Below are positions 27,958-38,106 of a stretch of DNA of 64,000 nucleotides, piece after piece. Source of the stretch: Chloroflexota bacterium (lineage in GTDB: Bacteria > Chloroflexota > Dehalococcoidia > UBA2247 > JAUWOP01); assembly GCA_030612045.1 (NCBI GenBank), contig JAUWOP010000002.1, forward strand, positions 5,894-69,893, in the 5' to 3' direction. The number at the start of each line of letters is the position of its first letter. The stretch's first letter is position 1. Both the position numbers and the translations under genes were made by a program. Below the pieces are notes generated by a model. It was not told the origin of the DNA. It worked only from the letters and a program-made list of their open reading frames with translations, and searched no databases.

Positions 27958-29406
27958 CTATTCTTCCTCAATGTCCTGGTAGATGCTGCTGAACTGGGTC
28001 AGGGCAGATTCGAGGTTGTCGGCAATTTCCCGGGCGAGGATGTCTGGCTCTGGTAAGTTTGCGGAATCCTCAAGGCTTTCATCCTTTAGCCAGAATATGT
28101 CGAGGTTTACCTTGTCCCGTTGCATCAACTCCTCATAAGTGAAAGCTCTAAATCTCTCGGCTTCTTTTCTTTCGTGTCGATTCTGGGGATTGTAGCAGCG
28201 GACAAAATCTAGCAGGTCATCATCTCGCAAGGTATTGGTTTTAAGAGTAAAGTGCATATTGGTTCTAAAATCATATATCCAGAGCTTGTCTGTCCATGGC
28301 TTTTCGCTGCCCGGCTTGCGGTCAAAGAAGAGGACATTTGCCTTGACGCCAGGGCGGTAGAATACACCTGTGGGCAACCTCAAAAGAGTATGAACATCAC
28401 ACTCCTGAAGTAGTTTCATTCTCACTGTCTCACCGGCGCCACCTTCAAAGAGGACATTGTCAGGCACGACTATAGCAGCCCGACCATTAGTCTTGAGGAG
28501 TGTTTTCACATGCTGGAGGAAATTCAATTGTTTATTAGATGTGGTCGCCGAGAAGTCTGGACGTTCATAGACCTGTGATTCCTTATCAGCCTTTCCCTCA
28601 CCATTAACTATGGTGTAGCTGCTTTTCTTGCCGAAGGGCGGATTGGTGAGTACCATATCAAAACGCTCACCGGGGTCAGCTATGAGGCTATCCCCGCTTT
28701 CAACAGGAGTCTCAATCCCATGTAGATAGAGATTCATCACACAGAGTCTGACCACACCATCAACAATATCCTTCCCTCTGAAAGCGTTGAATTTAAGGAA
28801 TTCCTTCTGGTCTATGTCCAGGTTATTGTGTTTGGGGATATAGTCATAGGCTGCCAGCAAAAAGCCACCTGTGCCACAGGCAGGGTCGCAAATAATCATT
28901 TCCGGCTCAGGTCTCATAGCCTCAACAATAGCTTTGATGAGAGCCCTAGGGGTGAAATACTGCCCAGCGCCGCTCTTAACATCCTCGGCGTTCTTCTGCA
29001 GAAGACCCTCATATATCTCCCCTTTGACATCGACATCCAGCCCAACCCAGGTTTCGGCATTGATAAGTTCAATAAGGCGCTTGAGCTTGGCTGGGTCTTG
29101 AATCCTGCTTTGAGATTTGCGAAAGATAATGCCGAGCATACCGCTCTCTTTGCTCAGGGACTCAAGGATAAGACGGTAATGAGCCTCCAGGGCGGCTCCA
29201 TCCCTCTCCCGCAGGCTTAGCCAATCAAAGCCCATGGGAATGGTTGAGGGCTTGTTGAAAGGATGCCTGGTCTGTTCATCAGCCATCTTCAGAAACAGCA
29301 GGTAAGTTAGCTGTTCCACATAGTCGCCATAGCTTACACCGTCATCACGAAGCACATGGCAGTAGTTCCACACTTTTGAGACAATTGTCGATGATTCATT
29401 GGGCAT
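27958..29406 (-). CDS. hsdM: type I restriction-modification system methyltransferase subunit
   Basis: HsdM N-terminal domain and N6-adenine MTase motif DMVLTNPPFGKK (NPPF). Confidence 0.9.
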   Translation of the reverse strand: MPNESSTIVSKVWNYCHVLRDDGVSYGDYVEQLTYLLFLKMADEQTRHPFNKPSTIPMGFDWLSLRERDGAALEAHYRLILESLSKESGMLGIIFRKSQSRIQDPAKLKRLIELINAETWVGLDVDVKGEIYEGLLQKNAEDVKSGAGQYFTPRALIKAIVEAMRPEPEMIICDPACGTGGFLLAAYDYIPKHNNLDIDQKEFLKFNAFRGKDIVDGVVRLCVMNLYLHGIETPVESGDSLIADPGERFDMVLTNPPFGKKSSYTIVNGEGKADKESQVYERPDFSATTSNKQLNFLQHVKTLLKTNGRAAIVVPDNVLFEGGAGETVRMKLLQECDVHTLLRLPTGVFYRPGVKANVLFFDRKPGSEKPWTDKLWIYDFRTNMHFTLKTNTLRDDDLLDFVRCYNPQNRHERKEAERFRAFTYEELMQRDKVNLDIFWLKDESLEDSANLPEPDILAREIADNLESALTQFSSIYQDIEEE

Positions 29407-29879
29407 TAGCCACTATTTCCCCTCAAACTTTGATCTATATACTCAACTTTCAAAAACACACCATTAAGGTGGTCAAAATCATGGTCTGTTGTTAAAAGCA
29501 AAGCGTTAATCACCGAACCTGTAGCAGCAATCCATATATCATTCTTACCCATATTTCGTGAAGATACCCCTTGAAGTAGTTTTTTTGAGGGATGTTTGCC
29601 CTGGCTATACGCATCAATTTCTGCATACTTCTCCAATATCTGATGGTCACCAATGTCAGCGAAAGGGATTTTTCCTAAGATGTCCCCGATCTTTCGCTTT
29701 TTTTCTTCACTCCACCCAAATTGTAGAGATACAGAATAGATTTCCCCAACTGTTACCACAGAAATAAGTGCAATATTGGGTGGCATGGATACCCCAAAAC
29801 GCTTCTCTACATACTCGGCGTAGCCTGCCCCTCGCACATAGCCCAGAATGATGCCCGTATCTAGGAGGTAAGTAGTCAT
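29406..29879 (-). CDS. PIN-domain nuclease (VapC-like)
   Basis: LLDTGIIL at the N-terminus and LLTTDHDF near the C-terminus give the PIN acidic residues. 157 aa. Confidence 0.7.
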   Translation of the reverse strand: MTTYLLDTGIILGYVRGAGYAEYVEKRFGVSMPPNIALISVVTVGEIYSVSLQFGWSEEKKRKIGDILGKIPFADIGDHQILEKYAEIDAYSQGKHPSKKLLQGVSSRNMGKNDIWIAATGSVINALLLTTDHDFDHLNGVFLKVEYIDQSLRGNSG

Positions 29880-30835
29880 AAGGTTTCTACGGATGCCTGC
29901 CTCAATACAGAAAGAATTTCGTCAATTGATTCTTCTCCTGGCCACTGTCCCCAAATCTCCGTCAGCGGGCTTTTGGTGCCTTGCTTTCTTTTCAATTCCT
30001 CGATTAACCTGTGAGGTGACTTTGATTCCGTAATATTCTGGAATATCTCCTCTCCAACCTCAAATGGTTTGATTATTTGTGCTTCAATAAAGCGCACCTT
30101 ACGGGAGGCATTGAAGTGAGCCGTCCCTTTAATCGTGACCTTCTTCCCCCAGAGACCTCTCATTTTCCCCTCTGTAATTAAGGGTGAGTCTGCCCTCCCA
30201 CGTACCTTTTGACCGTCTTCTAACTCAAGTTGGAACTGCCTCCGAGCATGTTCAATCAAATCGAATAAACCTGCAACGACAATAGCGTGAGACTGCGGTG
30301 TTTCTGTCTCCATGTGGCTTATCTTCTCTAACTCTTCGCGCCCTATCTTGAAATTATCCCTTTCCCTGATCTTGGAATTTACCTCAAGCTCACTCATGTA
30401 TTTCTTAAGAGGAGATCTGAAAGAGAGCAGAGCGTTTAACACTCCTCGGTCATAGTATTCGCTTTCCAATTGCTCGGAGGTTGCATCTGATACTGACCTG
30501 GAAAGCAAGGACATCGCAGTATCTTCCGGATTGGGCAGTGTATACCAAAGGGTCTGCTGCTGAACCTGTTCGGGGGCTGATTCTGCCAAAGTCGGCGCTT
30601 CAATCTCCAGTACTGTTGAGCCTTTACTGATTCCGGCAATCGTGAATTCAAGGGATTTACTTAACCATTCTGGATTCTTTCCTCTTTTCACGCTCCTGCC
30701 TTCGATCGAAAGGCGTAGTGCTCGTTCGCATCCCTGCAAAAGTGTATCAGAGATATCCCTGAGAGCTCTCAGGGGGATAGTGCCTTCTGGCGTTTTAAGC
30801 CCGGTAATTCTAATCGTGTAATGGATGCCGTTCAC
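29876..30835 (-). CDS. hypothetical protein (319 aa), immediately upstream of and overlapping the PIN gene
   Basis: Long ORF with good codon usage and no recognisable motif. Overlaps the PIN ORF by 4 nt (29876-29879). Confidence 0.5.
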   Translation of the reverse strand: MNGIHYTIRITGLKTPEGTIPLRALRDISDTLLQGCERALRLSIEGRSVKRGKNPEWLSKSLEFTIAGISKGSTVLEIEAPTLAESAPEQVQQQTLWYTLPNPEDTAMSLLSRSVSDATSEQLESEYYDRGVLNALLSFRSPLKKYMSELEVNSKIRERDNFKIGREELEKISHMETETPQSHAIVVAGLFDLIEHARRQFQLELEDGQKVRGRADSPLITEGKMRGLWGKKVTIKGTAHFNASRKVRFIEAQIIKPFEVGEEIFQNITESKSPHRLIEELKRKQGTKSPLTEIWGQWPGEESIDEILSVLRQASVETL

Positions 30836-30902: not shown

Positions 30903-31015
30903 TTGTGATCGTTCACCTGTGTCATTGCGAGCGAAGCGAAGCAATCTCGTTCTCCCCTTACCGAGATTGCTTCGTCGCTACGCTCCTCGCAATGACATGA
31001 GAGCGGGTGAACGGT
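30903..31015. repeat. A-type hairpin unit with outer CGTTCACC...GGTGAACG inverted flanks
   Basis: It overlaps the 3' end of hsdS and supplies its last residues (...MSLRGA) and stop codon. Confidence 0.8.
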
Positions 31016-32495
31016 TACCCTCCCTTATCCTTTCCAGCAGCTTGTCAGCAGGTTCGTCGCTGGGGTCTTGAGGAACCAGTTTACCCTCAAAGGCTCTCTT
31101 TAGAATACTCTGGCGCAATCTTACCGACTGCTTGAGGCTCTGGTCAACGGCTTTTCCTATCTCATCAGCTACCGAAAGGCGGCGCTCGATTTCCTCAACG
31201 ATTTTGTGTTGTTCGGTGAATGAGGATAATGGAAGTGGAAGGATTCGCAGGTGTTCGAGAGGAATGAACTTCTGTGTCGTTCCCTTCGAAAGTTTCCCCT
31301 TTTCCAATATCTCATTGAATGTCCAGCTTGCCAACCAAAACTTGAGGTATTTTGACCTGAGAAAGGATTGATTCTTCTTAAATAACCCCACGTTTTTAAT
31401 ACTAAAGAGCCTGTCTGTCTGAACTACTACAGGATTTCCCACCGTTCCTATCATTGCAAAGAGTATGTCCCCATTCTCAACCCCAGAACGTACACTAATT
31501 TTTTTGTGGTCTTCGATGCTAATATTCTTGGTCGTTGTGAAGTCTAAGCCATCTTCTTTGAGGTTTTTTGATGTCACCAACGGGATTCCCTCTTCAACAT
31601 ACCTAGGGGTATCGTGTGTACCATCTCTTACAGAAGAACAAACATCACTTGTTATCGTCCACACCCACCCCTCTGGCAAATCGGGCAAATCGGATGTATC
31701 CAATGACGGAAGTTCTTTGTATTTGCCCTGGGCATTTTTTGGGTGTTCTCTCTTGATGCGCTCCAGGAGCGCGGAGGCGGGCTCCAGTTCTCCCTTGTGG
31801 TCCTCTCGCCACTCCTGCGTCAGTTTTCCCTGGAAGGCATCCCTCAAAACTGCCTGGCGGTAGCGTTTTAACTGAGCCTTTATTTTCTTCAGCGCCGCTA
31901 CCCCGGCATCCAGCCTGGTGAAAAGCCCCTCAATCCTGGCAACGATGCGGTGCTGCTCAGGGAGGGGCGGGAGAGGGATGGGAATTTGGTGCATATAATG
32001 AACTGGCACCCTTAATTGACCTGCAGAGCCTGTCATATTTCTTTGGGCATCCCTTCTGAGGTCTTCTCGTATCAAAAAGAAGAAGAGCAACTTCCTTGGA
32101 AATGATTCAGGCAATCTGATAACATGGAACTCAGTTGAACCGAAACCGATACCGTTTTTCAAACCATGAGCTATTGCCACTTTCCCGTTTTCCATACAAG
32201 GTGTAATTTTGGCAAAAAGTAAGTCACCCTCTATGAATGGTGTATACCCTTTTTTTACTTCTGATAATCTCCTCGTAAAGAATAAATTGAGATGTCCTGT
32301 TAATTCCTCAACGCATTTCATCGGTAGAAATGCAACTTCTGTGTCGTCTGTGAGATATTCGCCTGTAAATTTCGGATTGATTTCTGCAATCTCCCCCAAC
32401 CTCATCCACACCCACCCCTTAGGCAATTGACGAGTGTTCACTCCTTCATCTCCTACGCTGCTAGCTCTTGAATATGTTCGTCCCGGCAACTCCAC
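30978..32495 (-). CDS. hsdS: type I restriction-modification system specificity subunit
   Basis: Two target-recognition domains, each followed by a conserved PLPPLPEQHRIV / LPLPLSSFTEQHKIV coiled-coil repeat. The true start may be the internal MRLGEIAEI (~32405). Confidence 0.85.
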   Translation of the reverse strand: MELPGRTYSRASSVGDEGVNTRQLPKGWVWMRLGEIAEINPKFTGEYLTDDTEVAFLPMKCVEELTGHLNLFFTRRLSEVKKGYTPFIEGDLLFAKITPCMENGKVAIAHGLKNGIGFGSTEFHVIRLPESFPRKLLFFFLIREDLRRDAQRNMTGSAGQLRVPVHYMHQIPIPLPPLPEQHRIVARIEGLFTRLDAGVAALKKIKAQLKRYRQAVLRDAFQGKLTQEWREDHKGELEPASALLERIKREHPKNAQGKYKELPSLDTSDLPDLPEGWVWTITSDVCSSVRDGTHDTPRYVEEGIPLVTSKNLKEDGLDFTTTKNISIEDHKKISVRSGVENGDILFAMIGTVGNPVVVQTDRLFSIKNVGLFKKNQSFLRSKYLKFWLASWTFNEILEKGKLSKGTTQKFIPLEHLRILPLPLSSFTEQHKIVEEIERRLSVADEIGKAVDQSLKQSVRLRQSILKRAFEGKLVPQDPSDEPADKLLERIREGNRSPALMSLRGA

Positions 32496-33220
32496 AGGAT
32501 ATCTTTCACATCATATCGACGAAGGGCATTGATAAGGTCTGGATTTAACGGGCGTTCGGTATCATTTAGGACCGCATAGGCAGTAGATTCGGGCAGTCTT
32601 ACCTTTTTGGTATCAGTCCATGCAAAGATAAGCGTTGTGATACTCTGACGGTCAGGCCGATTAATGGCTCTGAGTACTCTTTCAGGTTTTACACGGGAGG
32701 CAGGAATTACGAAGTCGAAAGAATTGTCCAAGCCGCTTTTTCCGGTGAATTTGACTGAAGGGGTAAAGCGAATATCATGGGCACGCAGATATGTCTCAAC
32801 ATCTTCTCGAAAAATACTCATCACCATTGGGGCAGCCATCACAAAGAGGTCATTTATTGCGAGCATGGCTTGAATCAGGTTGTGTTTCTTCTGCGGAAAG
32901 TTATCAGGGCGTGCCTCTACAATAAGCTCCTCACCCTGAAGACGAACTCCAAAGCCATTTAAAACAGCATTAAGCATCTGCCGTCTCTTCTCCGTCGTGA
33001 ACTCACATCCACTCAAGCGGAGGTCTCGGATAATGTAGCCATCGTCTGTGAGGGTAAATCCCTCTTTAGACCGCTTGATATATATCTGTAGATAGTCATT
33101 GTGACGGTCAACAAAGGGAGTGGTAATCTCACAAACACCATCTATATCCTGAATACTCATCTTTTGACCAAGCCATCTAATATAGACTTGAACAAGATCA
33201 CTGCACTCATTTGAAATCAT
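32453..33220 (-). CDS. hypothetical protein (255 aa) embedded between hsdR and hsdS
   Basis: ORF with no recognisable catalytic motif. Its start overlaps the upstream ORF stop (ATGA, 33217-33220). Confidence 0.5.
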   Translation of the reverse strand: MISNECSDLVQVYIRWLGQKMSIQDIDGVCEITTPFVDRHNDYLQIYIKRSKEGFTLTDDGYIIRDLRLSGCEFTTEKRRQMLNAVLNGFGVRLQGEELIVEARPDNFPQKKHNLIQAMLAINDLFVMAAPMVMSIFREDVETYLRAHDIRFTPSVKFTGKSGLDNSFDFVIPASRVKPERVLRAINRPDRQSITTLIFAWTDTKKVRLPESTAYAVLNDTERPLNPDLINALRRYDVKDILWSCRDEHIQELAA

Positions 33221-33714
33221 AGCAACCTCCTTTGAATCAAAGGCTGTTCAATAACATTACAAAATCGAAAGAAGTCCTCAAGAGTTGAAAACAGATCGTT
33301 TGTTTGGGGGAACTTATTGCTTGGTGCTGGAATTGCCCACTTATCCATAAATCCTTCCACATATAAGTGAAGATGAGGGGTTGGTAAGGTGACACCATTA
33401 TAAGGTTCGAGGAAAGAAAGTGGCACTGCCTCAACTTCTGGATTCGGGTGAGGGGAACCATCTACATCCAACCGCACAAGGATGAATGTGCCTTGATACC
33501 GTTCTTGATATGAGCATTTTGTCAGTCGAATTTGACCTCTGTTTACATCTATTAGGAAAGTCTCTATCTCATCAGTTGAAACAATGGGAATGACTAAAGA
33601 GCTCCCTGGGTAGGGGAAGAAATAGTTCTCGTTTCTGGCTCTTTTTTTTGGCATCTTTATTAAGAAATCTGCTTCACTCTGCGAAGGCATTCTGCTCCTT
33701 CCTAATTTGCTCAA
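33217..33714 (-). CDS. hypothetical protein (165 aa) embedded between hsdR and hsdS
   Basis: ORF starting 7 nt after the hsdR stop, translationally coupled to the next ORF. Confidence 0.45.
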   Translation of the reverse strand: MSKLGRSRMPSQSEADFLIKMPKKRARNENYFFPYPGSSLVIPIVSTDEIETFLIDVNRGQIRLTKCSYQERYQGTFILVRLDVDGSPHPNPEVEAVPLSFLEPYNGVTLPTPHLHLYVEGFMDKWAIPAPSNKFPQTNDLFSTLEDFFRFCNVIEQPLIQRRLL

Positions 33715-33720
33715 TTTGCT

Positions 33721-36468
33721 TCATGCTACCAGCACCTTATTCAGCTCTTCTAGAATACTGTCCAGCTCATGTTCGAAGAGATTGTATGCCTTTATTGCTC
33801 CACCCTTCCCAGCAAATGGCGTAAGCTCAAAGTGGTCTATGCTGATGCTTAAAGAAGCAGCGATGTGGTATTTTATCATCTCCAGCCACTCCATCTGCTC
33901 TGGGGTAAATTCTCGTCCTAAGCTCGCCTGCTCGGAAATCCATTCATTGAATCGCTTATCTACTGTCTCAGAGAAGGGTTCCAGCACATCAGTTTCCCCT
34001 ACAGCAAAGCGTATGAGTGAGATGATATTGGTTAGGAGTTTCTGGGTTCCAGCGTCCCTGACCTTGGAGCTCTCCAAATGTTCATAAGCCTGCCACAATA
34101 GCTCAGGTGTAAGATTATAAGGTGGCTTTTTGATAGCACTGGCAAGCTGCTTTATCTCCTGGTAGGTCAAACGGCGCTTGCTGTAAGGCTTACTATAAAT
34201 CACCTGCAAAGCGGTAAGCTCGTCCTTGTTCTCCTCTATGAATTTGTGAAAGGTATCAACGATGGTTCGAGCCTTTTCTTTCGCCTGAGCATCAAAGCCA
34301 GCAAAAATTAGCTTGTCCTGACTCACGGTATCAATAACCTGCTCACTTTCTCTCTTGAGGTCAATGAGCATATCACGCAGTTTAGGATTATCAAAGGGAC
34401 TGCAAGCAATTGTAGTCAGTTCATTACTAGCTTTCTTAACCTGTTCCTCTGTGGGTGCTTCTGTGTTGAAGAGCTCTTTCGCCTTATCTATTTGCTTGTC
34501 CGGGTCAACGGCGTCCAGCAAGCTATTGGTGAGCTGTTTTGGAGATATACCCCCTGTGGCACTTTGGATTTGCTGGCGGTCTTCTTCCTCAATCTCCTTA
34601 TCCAGTTGAGCGAGTCTTCCTGCCAGAGAAGTGAGCATGTCCTCATCTCTATTACCCAGAGCAACGGACATAAGCAGCTTATCGAAGGGGAGACTCTTGT
34701 TCCTTTCCAGAGGTTGGGAGTCTTGTTTCTCATTCTCGCACACGCCGACGGCATCCACGATTACGAAATTTGTCTTGTGAGATGCATCCGGGGTAACGGC
34801 GTTAAAATCCGTGGGCAGGATTGTCCTGCTGCCGCGTCCTTTCATCTGCTCAAACAGCAGCCGAGATTTAACATCTCTCATAAAGATGATGCACTCCAGA
34901 GGTCTAATATCGGTCCCGGTAGCAATCATATCCACTGTCACCGCGATGCGGGGATGATACGAGTTACGAAAGCTGGTAATCAGGTCCTCGGGCTTCTCGG
35001 TCTTGTAGGTTATCTTCTTACAGAGTTCATTTCCCTTACCGAATTCCTCCCTCACAATATGGACAATATCCTCAGCATGGGAATCGCTCTTGGCAAAGAT
35101 TAGGGTTTTGGGGACCTCAGTCCTGCCGGGGAATATCTCGGTAAAGAGTTTCTCCTTGAAGGTTTTGACCACTGTTCTTATCTGGTCTGGAGCAACTATG
35201 CTGCGGTCGAGTTGCTCTGGGGGGTAATCGAGAGCCTCATCCAACTGCTCCCAGCGGATTTGCCTGGTGAGCTTGTTTCGCTTATCTATATAATAGTCTG
35301 CTTTTATGGTGCTTCCCTCTTTGGTAATCTTTGTCTGGATGAGGTAAACATCGTAGCCTACATTAACGCCATCTGCCACAGCCCGCTCGTGGCTGTATTC
35401 CATAACCAGGTTCTGATTGAAAAAGCCCAGGGTTTGCTTTGATGGAGTTGCGGTGAGTCCGATAATAAAGGCATCAAAATACTCCAGCACCTGACGCCAG
35501 AGGTGATATATTGAGCGGTGACATTCATCGGTGATGATGAAGTCAAAGGTCTCAATGGGGATAGCGGGGTTATAGGAGATTTCTTTCGGTGGAAGAACTC
35601 CCAGTGGCATGCTGGGGAGAGACTGTTCCTCAAGCTCGGCATCAAAGTCTGGCTCTCCCTTGAGCATGGAATAGAGCCGCTGTATGGTGGTGATACAAAC
35701 TCGACTTACTGGGTCCAGGGTATTAGAGGTAACATGCTGGATATTATAGAGCTCAGTAAATTTCCTGCCGTCATCGGGTGTATCATATTGCTGGAACTCC
35801 CTTCTTGTTTGGCGGCCCAGGTTACTCCTATCAACAAGGAAGAGAACCCTTTTAGCATTGGCGAACTTTATCAGACGGTAAACAGAGCTCACGGCGGCAT
35901 AGGTCTTACCAGTTCCCGAGGTCATCTGGATAAGCGCTCGCGGCCTTTCCCCTGCAAAGGATTCCTCAAGATTTCCAATCGCCTCAATTTGGCAATCCCT
36001 CAATCTGTCAGTTTTTAGCGGAGGCATAGTTTTGAGTCTGGCTCTGAGAGTGTCCTGCTGAGTTAGCCATTCATTAAGCGTTTCGGGACGATGAAAGCTA
36101 AACACCCTTCGAGAGCGGGGTGCTGGGTCTCTTAAATCTCTGAAGGAGGTTTCTGTGCCTGTGCTCTCATAAACAAAGTGAAGAGGCTCCTGGACATGGG
36201 GGAGATTTTCAGGGGAAGCTGTTGAGTATTTTCCAGACTGTTCAGCTACACCACTTAAGGTAGTACCGACTGGTTTAGCCTCCACAACCCCAACAGCTTT
36301 TCTGTCAACAAAAAGGACATAATCAGCCGTTCCAGATTTCAGGGGAAATTCACGGACGGCTACTCCTGGAGAAGCTCCGAGATTCAGTTGCCGCAGGTCC
36401 TGAACAGCCCAACCGGCAGTCTCCAGCATCTGGTCAATCCTTTGTCTTGCCTTTTCCTCTGGTTTCAT
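33721..36468 (-). CDS. hsdR: type I restriction enzyme R subunit (helicase-nuclease)
   Basis: N-terminal nuclease domain, SF2 helicase motifs MTSGTGKT (Walker A) and DECHRS (DEAH), and a C-terminal domain. 915 aa. Confidence 0.9.
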   Translation of the reverse strand: MKPEEKARQRIDQMLETAGWAVQDLRQLNLGASPGVAVREFPLKSGTADYVLFVDRKAVGVVEAKPVGTTLSGVAEQSGKYSTASPENLPHVQEPLHFVYESTGTETSFRDLRDPAPRSRRVFSFHRPETLNEWLTQQDTLRARLKTMPPLKTDRLRDCQIEAIGNLEESFAGERPRALIQMTSGTGKTYAAVSSVYRLIKFANAKRVLFLVDRSNLGRQTRREFQQYDTPDDGRKFTELYNIQHVTSNTLDPVSRVCITTIQRLYSMLKGEPDFDAELEEQSLPSMPLGVLPPKEISYNPAIPIETFDFIITDECHRSIYHLWRQVLEYFDAFIIGLTATPSKQTLGFFNQNLVMEYSHERAVADGVNVGYDVYLIQTKITKEGSTIKADYYIDKRNKLTRQIRWEQLDEALDYPPEQLDRSIVAPDQIRTVVKTFKEKLFTEIFPGRTEVPKTLIFAKSDSHAEDIVHIVREEFGKGNELCKKITYKTEKPEDLITSFRNSYHPRIAVTVDMIATGTDIRPLECIIFMRDVKSRLLFEQMKGRGSRTILPTDFNAVTPDASHKTNFVIVDAVGVCENEKQDSQPLERNKSLPFDKLLMSVALGNRDEDMLTSLAGRLAQLDKEIEEEDRQQIQSATGGISPKQLTNSLLDAVDPDKQIDKAKELFNTEAPTEEQVKKASNELTTIACSPFDNPKLRDMLIDLKRESEQVIDTVSQDKLIFAGFDAQAKEKARTIVDTFHKFIEENKDELTALQVIYSKPYSKRRLTYQEIKQLASAIKKPPYNLTPELLWQAYEHLESSKVRDAGTQKLLTNIISLIRFAVGETDVLEPFSETVDKRFNEWISEQASLGREFTPEQMEWLEMIKYHIAASLSISIDHFELTPFAGKGGAIKAYNLFEHELDSILEELNKVLVA

Positions 36469-36639: not shown

Positions 36640-36939
36640 GTGGAGGTAATATTTGCTACTGAAGATTTAGACCGTTTGGAAGTAGATGGGTCTTTTACGG
36701 CTGGATTTAACCAAACGTTAGTAAAAGCATACCGCAATAAAATCAATATTATCAGGCAAGCTGTTGATGAAAGGCTCTTTTACGCTATTAAATCTCTTCA
36801 CTTTGAGAAGCTGGAAGGTAAACGAAAACATCAGCACTCTATACGCTTAAACAATAAATATAGCCTGATTGTCGAATTGGTCGAACGCAAACCGGAAAAC
36901 AAAGCCGTTAGGATAGTAGAAATCACAGATTATCATTAG
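36640..36939 (+). CDS. higB: HigB-like (RelE/ParE superfamily) toxin, GTG start
   Basis: The KSLHFEKLEGKRKHQHSIRLNNKYSLIVEL motif is typical of the HigB/plasmid-maintenance-killer family. The toxin gene precedes the antitoxin-like gene, as in hig loci. Confidence 0.7.
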   Translation: MEVIFATEDLDRLEVDGSFTAGFNQTLVKAYRNKINIIRQAVDERLFYAIKSLHFEKLEGKRKHQHSIRLNNKYSLIVELVERKPENKAVRIVEITDYH

Positions 36940-36957
36940 AGAAAGGAGGAATCTGAC

Positions 36958-38106
36958 ATGATGACTGCTATGAAGGAGAGAATACCGGCCGAAGGCTTCC
37001 TGCCTGGAGATTTAATCAAGGGGGAGTTGAAGGAAAGGGGTTGGACACAAGAGGACTTAGCAGAAATACTAGGGCGTACTACTAGTGCCGTAAATGAGAT
37101 AATTACTGGCAGAAGAGGTATTACGGTTGATACTGCAAAGGGTCTAGGAGAAGCGCTTGGAACTGGGGCACAGTTTTGGCTTAACATGGAATCAGCTTAT
37201 CGCTTGTCTTTGGAAAGAACTAGGCCGGAATCTGTATCTCGCAAGGCAGTTTTGTACGAAGCAGCACCAATTCGTGCCATGATAAAGAGAAATTGGATTG
37301 AATCCTCGACAAATATTGAAGTTCTGGAGCAAAGGCTCCGTGAATTTTTCGGAACTTCGGATTTGTCTCAAATTCCGCGTTTGAACTGTATGACCAGAAA
37401 GTCTACAGAGGAACTTACACCAGCACAAAGAGCCTGGCTATTTCGAGCAAAAAATCTTGCTATGGCTGTTCATGCAGGAAAATACACAAAAAGTCGTCTG
37501 AATATGGCATTGGAACGATTGAAGGATATGAGAGCTAACGAGGCAGATATTAGGCTGATACCTAAGGTCTTAGCCGATGCTGGTATAAGGTTGCTTATTA
37601 TTGAACCTTTTCCTCAATCTAAGATAGATGGTGCTAGTTTTTGGGTCAATGGGTCACCAGTCATAGCATTATCGCTTAGGTATGATAGAATAGATTCTTT
37701 TTGGCATACGTTAATGCATGAGATAGGACATGTAAAGAACGAAGATGGATTAATTGACAACTGTATGATTCTGGATACCGATTTGCTTGATGAATACAAT
37801 GATGTTAAACCCTACGAAAGAGCGGCGGATGAATTTGCGGTTAATTTCTTAGTTCCACAAAAAGAATTAAACGATTTTATAGCTCGTATTCAACCAATAT
37901 ATTCTAAGTCCAAAATCGTAGGCTTTGCGAACAGGATAAAAGTTCATCCGGGCATAGTGATAGGACAATTACATCATCGAGGTAAGGAACGAGGTGGTCT
38001 TGATTATTCCCATAGTCGTGAGATGCTGGTTAAGGTTAGACATCTTATTACAAGAGCAGCGACGACCGATGGATACGGACAAATATTGTCTTTGAATCTA
38101 AGTTGA
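36958..38106 (+). CDS. HigA-like HTH-XRE domain fused to an ImmA/IrrE-family zinc metallopeptidase domain
   Basis: N-terminal HTH (KERGWTQEDLAEILGRTTSAVNEIITG). C-terminal region with HEIGHV (HExxH) and a downstream Glu, typical of COG2856/ImmA. 382 aa. Confidence 0.7.
   Translation: MMTAMKERIPAEGFLPGDLIKGELKERGWTQEDLAEILGRTTSAVNEIITGRRGITVDTAKGLGEALGTGAQFWLNMESAYRLSLERTRPESVSRKAVLYEAAPIRAMIKRNWIESSTNIEVLEQRLREFFGTSDLSQIPRLNCMTRKSTEELTPAQRAWLFRAKNLAMAVHAGKYTKSRLNMALERLKDMRANEADIRLIPKVLADAGIRLLIIEPFPQSKIDGASFWVNGSPVIALSLRYDRIDSFWHTLMHEIGHVKNEDGLIDNCMILDTDLLDEYNDVKPYERAADEFAVNFLVPQKELNDFIARIQPIYSKSKIVGFANRIKVHPGIVIGQLHHRGKERGGLDYSHSREMLVKVRHLITRAATTDGYGQILSLNLS

Follow-up and report, generated by a model that had tools for sequence, protein, structure and literature searches.

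In a 64,000-nucleotide stretch of a Chloroflexota bacterium genome (contig JAUWOP010000002.1, positions 5,894 to 69,893; hereafter the window), a type I restriction–modification (R-M) operon carries two overlapping genes, A and B, between hsdR and hsdS. Judged from its sequence, the pair almost certainly belongs to PDC-M24, of which it is a typical copy; this kind is already catalogued but uncharacterized, and the window adds one more member. We read PDC-M24 as a horizontally mobile cargo module that most likely acts as an autonomous anti-phage system, possibly of the abortive-infection type. We give this reading about an even chance, and a role of PDC-M24 in defence as such is fairly probable.

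Both genes fall into named protein families. Protein A matches Pfam DUF6978 (1.6e-36, 126 bits; gathering cut-off 29.6), and protein B matches DUF1828 (9e-31, 106.4 bits; cut-off 22) followed by DUF1829 (5e-28, 97.9 bits; cut-off 22.2). Because these scores lie far above the cut-offs and homologues number in the thousands, A and B are real genes and not chance open reading frames (ORFs). Among the PADLOC profiles, A aligns with PDC-M24A (PDLC04538; 2.2e-49, spanning residues 11–163 of the 165-amino acid ORF), and B aligns over its full length with PDC-M24B (PDLC04539; 6.3e-105). The two genes show the catalogued arrangement, in which B follows A, adjacent and on the same strand. A search of NCBIfam returned a model for neither protein. 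The sequence-only reading of this DNA had called the two ORFs unknown, a description that gives way to DUF6978, DUF1828 plus DUF1829, and the PADLOC entry for the pair. The window pair shares with PDC-M24 the same profile hidden Markov models, gene order, strand, adjacency, and embedding in a type I R-M operon, and nothing sets it apart from other copies; it was through type I R-M embedding that the candidate was first found.

By a “guilt-by-embedding” approach, Payne et al. (2024, bioRxiv 10.1101/2024.01.29.577857) derived 145 phage defence candidates, among them PDC-M24, from genes lying inside BREX, DISARM, and type I R-M systems; the sequence-only reading of the window pair followed the same logic. 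The supplementary table of that study lists PDC-M24 as CAS_00098, FAM_00129>>FAM_00065, figure 153, with the remark “Assign as candidate PDC-M24.” Only nine Hma-embedded candidates were tested there, and a later study tested eight other candidates, PDC-M24 not included. Our search of the literature on PDC-M24, DUF6978, DUF1828, DUF1829, and HipAD returned the catalogue entry and a mention of the HipAD protein DS-6B only.

Several other assignments were considered and rejected. Neither A nor B has a match to PrrC, RloC, an ATPase, Abi, GmrSD, or a classical type II toxin–antitoxin (TA) family in Pfam, NCBIfam, or PADLOC, in agreement with the earlier impression that the proteins do not resemble PrrC, RloC, Abi, or GmrSD. 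For a GmrSD-like type IV enzyme, the DUF262 and DUF1524 (HNH) domains are likewise unmatched in both proteins (Pfam, PADLOC). The pair is also not a split or second hsdS, because the Methylase_S domain is found only in the ORF at 30978–32495 and in neither A nor B.

Gene A (33217–33690, minus strand) most likely starts at ATG 33690 and encodes 157 amino acids. The mechanical ORF extends upstream to TTG 33714, which is the 7th base past the hsdR stop (TGA, 33723–33721); the 7-nucleotide distance given for the first ORF therefore holds, and its length of 165 amino acids is correct for the mechanical ORF but not for the probable biological start. The shorter form is suggested by a strong Shine–Dalgarno sequence, GGAAGGAG, which lies at 33695–33702 on the minus strand (read on the coding strand) and is separated from the ATG by a 4-nucleotide spacer. 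It is further suggested by the gene callers, which give A 157 amino acids on four public contigs of identical sequence, and by the A homologues, which start at the same point (MLTQSEAD...). As had been proposed, the two ORFs are translationally coupled: the ATG of B overlaps the TGA of A as ATGA (33217–33220, minus, coding strand), and an AAGGAGG sequence lies 5 nucleotides upstream of the B ATG. Gene B (32453–33220, minus) encodes 255 amino acids and is supported by Pfam, PADLOC, and an AF2 model.

The two genes form a unit well beyond the window. B has 3619 matches in a protein collection clustered at 90%, and the top 120 of them are 61–78% identical to B across phyla and across the divide between Bacteria and Archaea (Bacillota, Planctomycetota, Armatimonadota, Methanosarcinales, Thermoplasmata, and others). 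Relatives of B occur in at least 577 bacterial and archaeal genomes, counted as one genome per species. An exhaustive profile search for A gave 1267 clusters at 50% identity, nearly all of them stand-alone proteins of 145–165 amino acids. In the 80 best loci, on which the unit statistics are based, 68 have A immediately in front of B (67 under the initial window criterion and locus L048, where A was recovered afterwards). A 4-nucleotide overlap joins A and B in 47 of these 68 pairs, 46 times as ATGA, and 9 more pairs overlap by 1 nucleotide. The pairwise distances of A and B are strongly correlated (r=0.876, Mantel p=0.001), and A and B co-evolve as a conserved unit. One database protein even joins DUF6978 to the start of DUF1828; the other fusions among the 1267 A clusters comprise only domain-free N-terminal extensions and one 8xMP fragment.

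The surroundings of the pair were surveyed in the 45 loci flanked on each side by 8 kb or more, in which hsd genes were called by profiles. In 20 of these (∼44%) the pair is embedded between type I hsd genes on the same strand, and in 3 it has hsd genes on one side only. The proposed position in the cargo slot of a type I R-M operon is borne out in the window, between hsdR and hsdS, and the expected R-M association is borne out by the 20 embedded loci; it is not obligatory, as the pair also occurs in type III-like R-M and Hma systems, in prophages, on a plasmid, and by itself. In two loci that lack hsd genes, it sits between an ∼870-residue ResIII helicase and an N6_N4 methyltransferase, as in type III-like R-M. 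In the closest genome relative it immediately follows an HmaB methylase, and in one Bacillota genome it stands alone among housekeeping genes. Other immediate neighbours include PDC-S05/RhuM, PDC-S23, PDC-M41B, Fic, AbiJ, MNT/HEPN, and Schlafen/AlbA_2 proteins.

Distant copies (25–34% identity) are found in temperate phages, including Lactobacillus prophage Lj965, Staphylococcus phage 37, and Streptococcus phages Javan197 and Javan249. The B homologue adjoins an integrase in all four of the temperate phages inspected; Lj965 and phage 37 have it between the repressor region and the integrase, and a superinfection-exclusion gene lies close by in the former. An ORF of ∼150 codons precedes B in three of the inspected phages. 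In Lj965 and phage 37 this ORF encodes an A homologue (hhalign probability 95–96.5%) that retains the RL-x-x-G-x-x-H-x-N ... H-x-H-x-Y core. An IncP conjugative plasmid bears the pair with the same 4-nucleotide overlap. The A–B pairing persists at ∼25–30% identity in prophages and on the IncP plasmid, and the cassette moves horizontally and lodges in defence operons and in prophage lysogeny modules.

This range of contexts bears on the question of whether the pair merely serves its host system, either as a guard fired by an anti-restriction block of Hsd, as PrrC is with EcoprrI, or in the processing of restriction products. Such an accessory dependent on an R-M or methylase-helicase system would fit the same-strand embedding that recurs in three methylase-helicase systems (type I, type III-like, and Hma), as well as the short intergenic distances and the chance-level internal promoter signals. 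However, the host systems are unrelated, and the slot varies: of the full set of 80 loci, 27 are embedded, 21 of them as M-S-[AB]-R and 2 in the window's order, R-[AB]-S-M, to which the window itself is added. The cassette also occurs in isolation, surrounded by housekeeping genes, as well as in prophage lysogeny modules and on the IncP plasmid, and we consider the dependent accessory quite improbable. Since the cassette also occurs where Hsd proteins are absent, its existence does not depend on them.

The mobility of the cassette could also be that of a selfish, homing-like nuclease spreading into conserved operons with no benefit to the host. The nuclease-like fold of B described below, the very high identity across distant phyla, and the location of the pair at gene junctions are what such an element would show. 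We searched for repeats flanking the A–B cassette and found chance-level matches only and no target duplications. Recombinase and intein or intron contexts are absent, the insertion sites are diverse with no single cognate site, and strong purifying selection acts on A and B as a pair, all of which makes a selfish cassette very improbable indeed.

A third reading takes the pair for a TA-like addiction module with the main role of stabilizing the R-M island, prophage, or plasmid carrying it and not of stopping phages. An overlapping, highly mobile two-gene cassette on prophages, on plasmids, and in R-M operons has the appearance of one, and TA genes are rich among the neighbours (HigB-like, MNT/HEPN, PIN). 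Yet neither protein matches a TA family in Pfam, NCBIfam, or PADLOC, and a small DNA-binding antitoxin domain is absent; moreover, TA and defence roles are not mutually exclusive. We regard the addiction module as improbable. With contexts so diverse, no similarity to TA families, and neither flanking repeats nor a single target site, the accessory, selfish-nuclease, and addiction readings are less likely.

The AF2 model of B (pLDDT 88.4) is organized in two domains. The N-terminal DUF1828 domain (residues 1–103; 32912–33220, minus) contains an invariant TDDG loop (Asp-59 and Asp-60) and is predicted to adopt a type III secretion chaperone-like fold. We compared it with class I type III secretion chaperones (Spa15, SicP, SpcU, and InvB) and with YbjN-like proteins. 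In contrast to the secretion chaperones, PDC-M24 has no secretion-system context, the domain is fused to a nuclease-like domain, and its ligand would presumably be A.

The C-terminal DUF1829 domain (residues 150–255; 32456–32773, minus), together with a long helix (residues 105–147), is predicted to assume a restriction-endonuclease-like PD-(D/E)xK fold in which the α-β-β-β-α-β core is present. The predicted fold was compared with the type II enzymes PspGI, EcoRII-C, NgoMIV, and Cfr10I and with the nuclease domains of Can2/Card1, NucS, AF1548, and XisH; in the predicted structure, the domain resembles the nuclease domains of the CARF nucleases Can2 and Card1. The difference to all of these lies in a sequence identity of 5–13%, in the lack of profile-level similarity, and in a canonical catalytic lysine, which could not be identified in B. 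PDC-M24 also has neither a dedicated methyltransferase nor a CARF domain. When the A and B alignments were searched as sequence profiles against all PDB chains, the best match had an E value of 0.097 (a PTS IIB protein) and is not meaningful. Aligning the B C-terminal domain with an alignment of HsdR N-terminal nuclease domains by hhalign gave a probability of 0.2% and no register of the catalytic motifs.

The residues conserved in B differ with the depth of the comparison. Across the wider family, Tyr-13, Pro-35, Asp-59, Leu-67, Gly-71, Arg-79, Leu-87, Gln-117, Asp-124, Ser-135, Phe-137, Asp-140, Val-141, and Gly-160 are the only invariant residues. In the R-M-embedded clade, Asp-140, Glu-180, and Arg-181 are invariant, Asp-169 is nearly so (a single change of aspartate to glutamate), and an acidic residue is conserved at position 203 (Asp or Glu). 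Catalytic competence of B is plausible but unproven, because a lysine in ExK register is missing and the alignment to HsdR nuclease domains gave nothing.

Protein A is modelled confidently, yet no solved or viral fold matches it; a Foldseek search of the model against viral structures returned nothing at E ≤ 0.001. Family-wide, Leu-10, Lys-15, Leu-71, Arg-73, His-81, Asn-83, and Ala-119 are invariant, and His-106, His-108, and Phe-140 are nearly invariant. This pattern suggests a metal or catalytic site and a conserved N-terminal segment.

From these features, a working model can be drawn in which B is a nuclease effector gated by A, an assignment that we make tentatively. Inserted between hsdR and hsdS, the cassette is read together with the other genes of the type I R-M operon. 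The first step is established by the ATGA-coupled ORFs, from which A and B are made in fixed proportion. A and B would then form a complex in which the chaperone-like DUF1828 domain at the N terminus of B grips A, and the restriction-endonuclease-like DUF1829 domain would cut nucleic acid once infection alters the state of this complex. Embedding in an R-M operon would provide co-regulation and co-transfer and possibly a back-up when restriction fails.

The roles may, however, be reversed. A would then be a small metal-dependent effector (Arg-73, His-81, Asn-83, and His-106-x-His-108), and B would be a sensor or regulator whose nuclease-like domain only binds nucleic acid or neutralizes A, as has been proposed for the DUF1829 partner in HipAD/DS-6. 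The His/Asn cluster of A is the most conserved feature family-wide, including the phage copies, whereas the putative catalytic residues of B are lost in distant homologues, and the DUF1829-containing DS-6B has been modelled as a binding partner or antitoxin and not as an effector. Against this stand the fold of A, which is unlike that of any known enzyme, the invariant or nearly invariant Asp-169, Glu-180, and Arg-181 of B in the R-M-embedded clade, and the occurrence of B without A in ∼12% of loci, which is hard to explain for a pure regulator of A. We treat the reversed-role model as a serious rival and, on balance, as unlikely.

A number of observations weigh against the favoured reading of an autonomous anti-phage module with B as its effector. 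Asp-169 and Glu-180 of B are lost in the most distant phage (Javan) homologues, and thus the nuclease domain may be inactive or may only bind; no canonical (D/E)xK lysine could be placed in ExK register in B; and the conserved histidine cluster could make A the enzyme instead. The interaction of A and B is itself something that we infer. In ∼11 of the 80 loci B occurs without a full-length A despite room for it, and 22 of the 45 well-flanked loci have no hsd genes by profiles; about half of the loci lack an R-M association. In the literature searched, PDC-M24 appears in no paper's main text, and no anti-phage test is reported.

Where A is missing, the gene upstream of B encodes a different defence candidate (PDC-S11, PDC-M41B/M30B, or a CARF protein), or it is a remnant of A; in this last case (L040), a C-terminal fragment of A is retained. 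The CARF case lies on a Methanofollis contig (L075:871–1653), where a CARF-domain protein (PADLOC CARF3, 2.5e-57) is encoded directly upstream of a solo B homologue.

Like PrrC/EcoprrI and RloC, A–B is a cargo between hsd genes, is co-oriented with them, and plausibly provides a second line of defence. Unlike PrrC and RloC, it lacks both an ABC-ATPase domain and an anticodon-nuclease motif and matches them neither in sequence nor by profile; it consists of two genes instead of one, and it is also found outside R-M systems, in which PrrC is embedded almost without exception. The resemblance to other R-M-embedded second-line modules is one of position only. DUF1829 has newly been tied to defence through DS-6B (DUF3037 plus DUF1829) of the validated HipAD/DS-6 system, where the modelled role of DS-6B is to bind the HipA-like kinase and DNA. 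Both systems have two genes and the DUF1829 domain in common, but the partner is a HipA-like kinase in one and DUF6978 in the other, the N-terminal domain is DUF3037 instead of DUF1828, and DS-6B is regarded as a partner of the binding or antitoxin-like type. By inference, Shedu (SduA) and PARIS (AriA/AriB) offer a working analogy, in which a nuclease effector is silenced until infection by an N-terminal domain (Shedu) or by a partner (PARIS). Neither is homologous to PDC-M24; their domains are DUF4263 (Shedu) and an ABC ATPase plus Toprim (PARIS). PDC-M24 might even be a mechanistically new immune module that has no described counterpart among characterized defence systems. DUF6978 would then be a new fold with a His/Asn (probably metal) site, acting as a sensor or a new effector, and the chaperone-like domain would hold it against the nuclease-like domain until infection; we regard this as a doubtful possibility.

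The host operon of the window lies on the minus strand throughout, in the order hsdR–A–B–hsdS–orf319–PIN–hsdM, and all gaps between its genes are tiny or overlapping. Promoter-like and terminator-like matches inside the operon are at chance level, with no internal promoter above chance. The GC content of A–B is slightly below that of hsdR. Both hsdR (33721–36468, minus; EcoEI_R_C and ResIII) and hsdM (27958–29406, minus) are identified by Pfam, PADLOC, and NCBIfam profiles. Downstream of the pair, as already recognized from the sequence, lies hsdS (30978–32441, minus), with a start at ATG 32405 or GTG 32441. This start is ambiguous. The longest ORF begins at GTG 32495 and overlaps B; the start at ATG 32405, chosen by the gene callers, yields 475 amino acids and drops the conserved N-terminal ‘LPKGWVW’ motif, which a start at GTG 32441 would keep.

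A second cargo pair is located between hsdS and hsdM (29406–30835, minus) and encodes a 319-amino acid protein (orf319) and a 157-amino acid PIN/VapC-like protein. The orf319 gene overlaps the PIN gene by 4 nucleotides, and the PIN stop overlaps the hsdM start. No Pfam domain is found in orf319, and its PADLOC matches are weak (PDC-M32A, 8e-7); its family is small, with 80 clusters, none of which has a Pfam domain. In all three other contigs examined, orf319 is followed by a PIN protein of 151–158 amino acids, in one of them (L098) again directly before hsdM. The two genes look like an uncatalogued module of a large partner plus PIN, and they may be more novel than the PDC-M24 pair.

On two metagenome contigs (L003 and L004), the DNA is 100% identical to the window across the 3′ part of hsdR, A, B, and the 5′ part of hsdS. 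Their HsdS is 98% identical to that of the window up to about residue 416 and then diverges, and the next gene encodes a DUF3800 protein in place of orf319 and PIN. The cargo of the S–M slot in this operon is therefore exchangeable, and the breakpoint falls within the 3′ end of hsdS. In a Gemmatimonadales locus (L059:10827–12468), homologues of orf319 and PIN come directly after A–B although hsd genes are absent from the vicinity, and thus the two cargo modules of the window co-occur outside R-M too.

Divergent from hsdR, on the plus strand (36640–38106), the window contains a gene for a HigB-like toxin (99 amino acids) followed by a gene for a protein with HTH_3 and Peptidase_M78 domains (ImmA/IrrE-like, 382 amino acids). 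A WOR-3 genome (L085) has a similar HigB-like and HTH/M78 pair next to the type III-like R-M system that bears A–B. It could represent a regulatory or TA pair that accompanies these islands.

The locus offers a clear natural case of a single type I R-M operon with two independent cargo modules, PDC-M24 in the R–S slot and orf319 plus PIN in the S–M slot, where a strain variant has a DUF3800 gene instead. PDC-M24 is abundant, reaching at least 577 species genomes as well as temperate phages and plasmids, and it is very strongly conserved; no fold can be recognized in one of the two proteins. The structural reading obtained here by computation gives a bare catalogue entry the form of a hypothesis that can be tested at named residues. 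If validated, PDC-M24 would add a widespread family to the known defence systems, and DUF6978 might represent a new fold with a new function.

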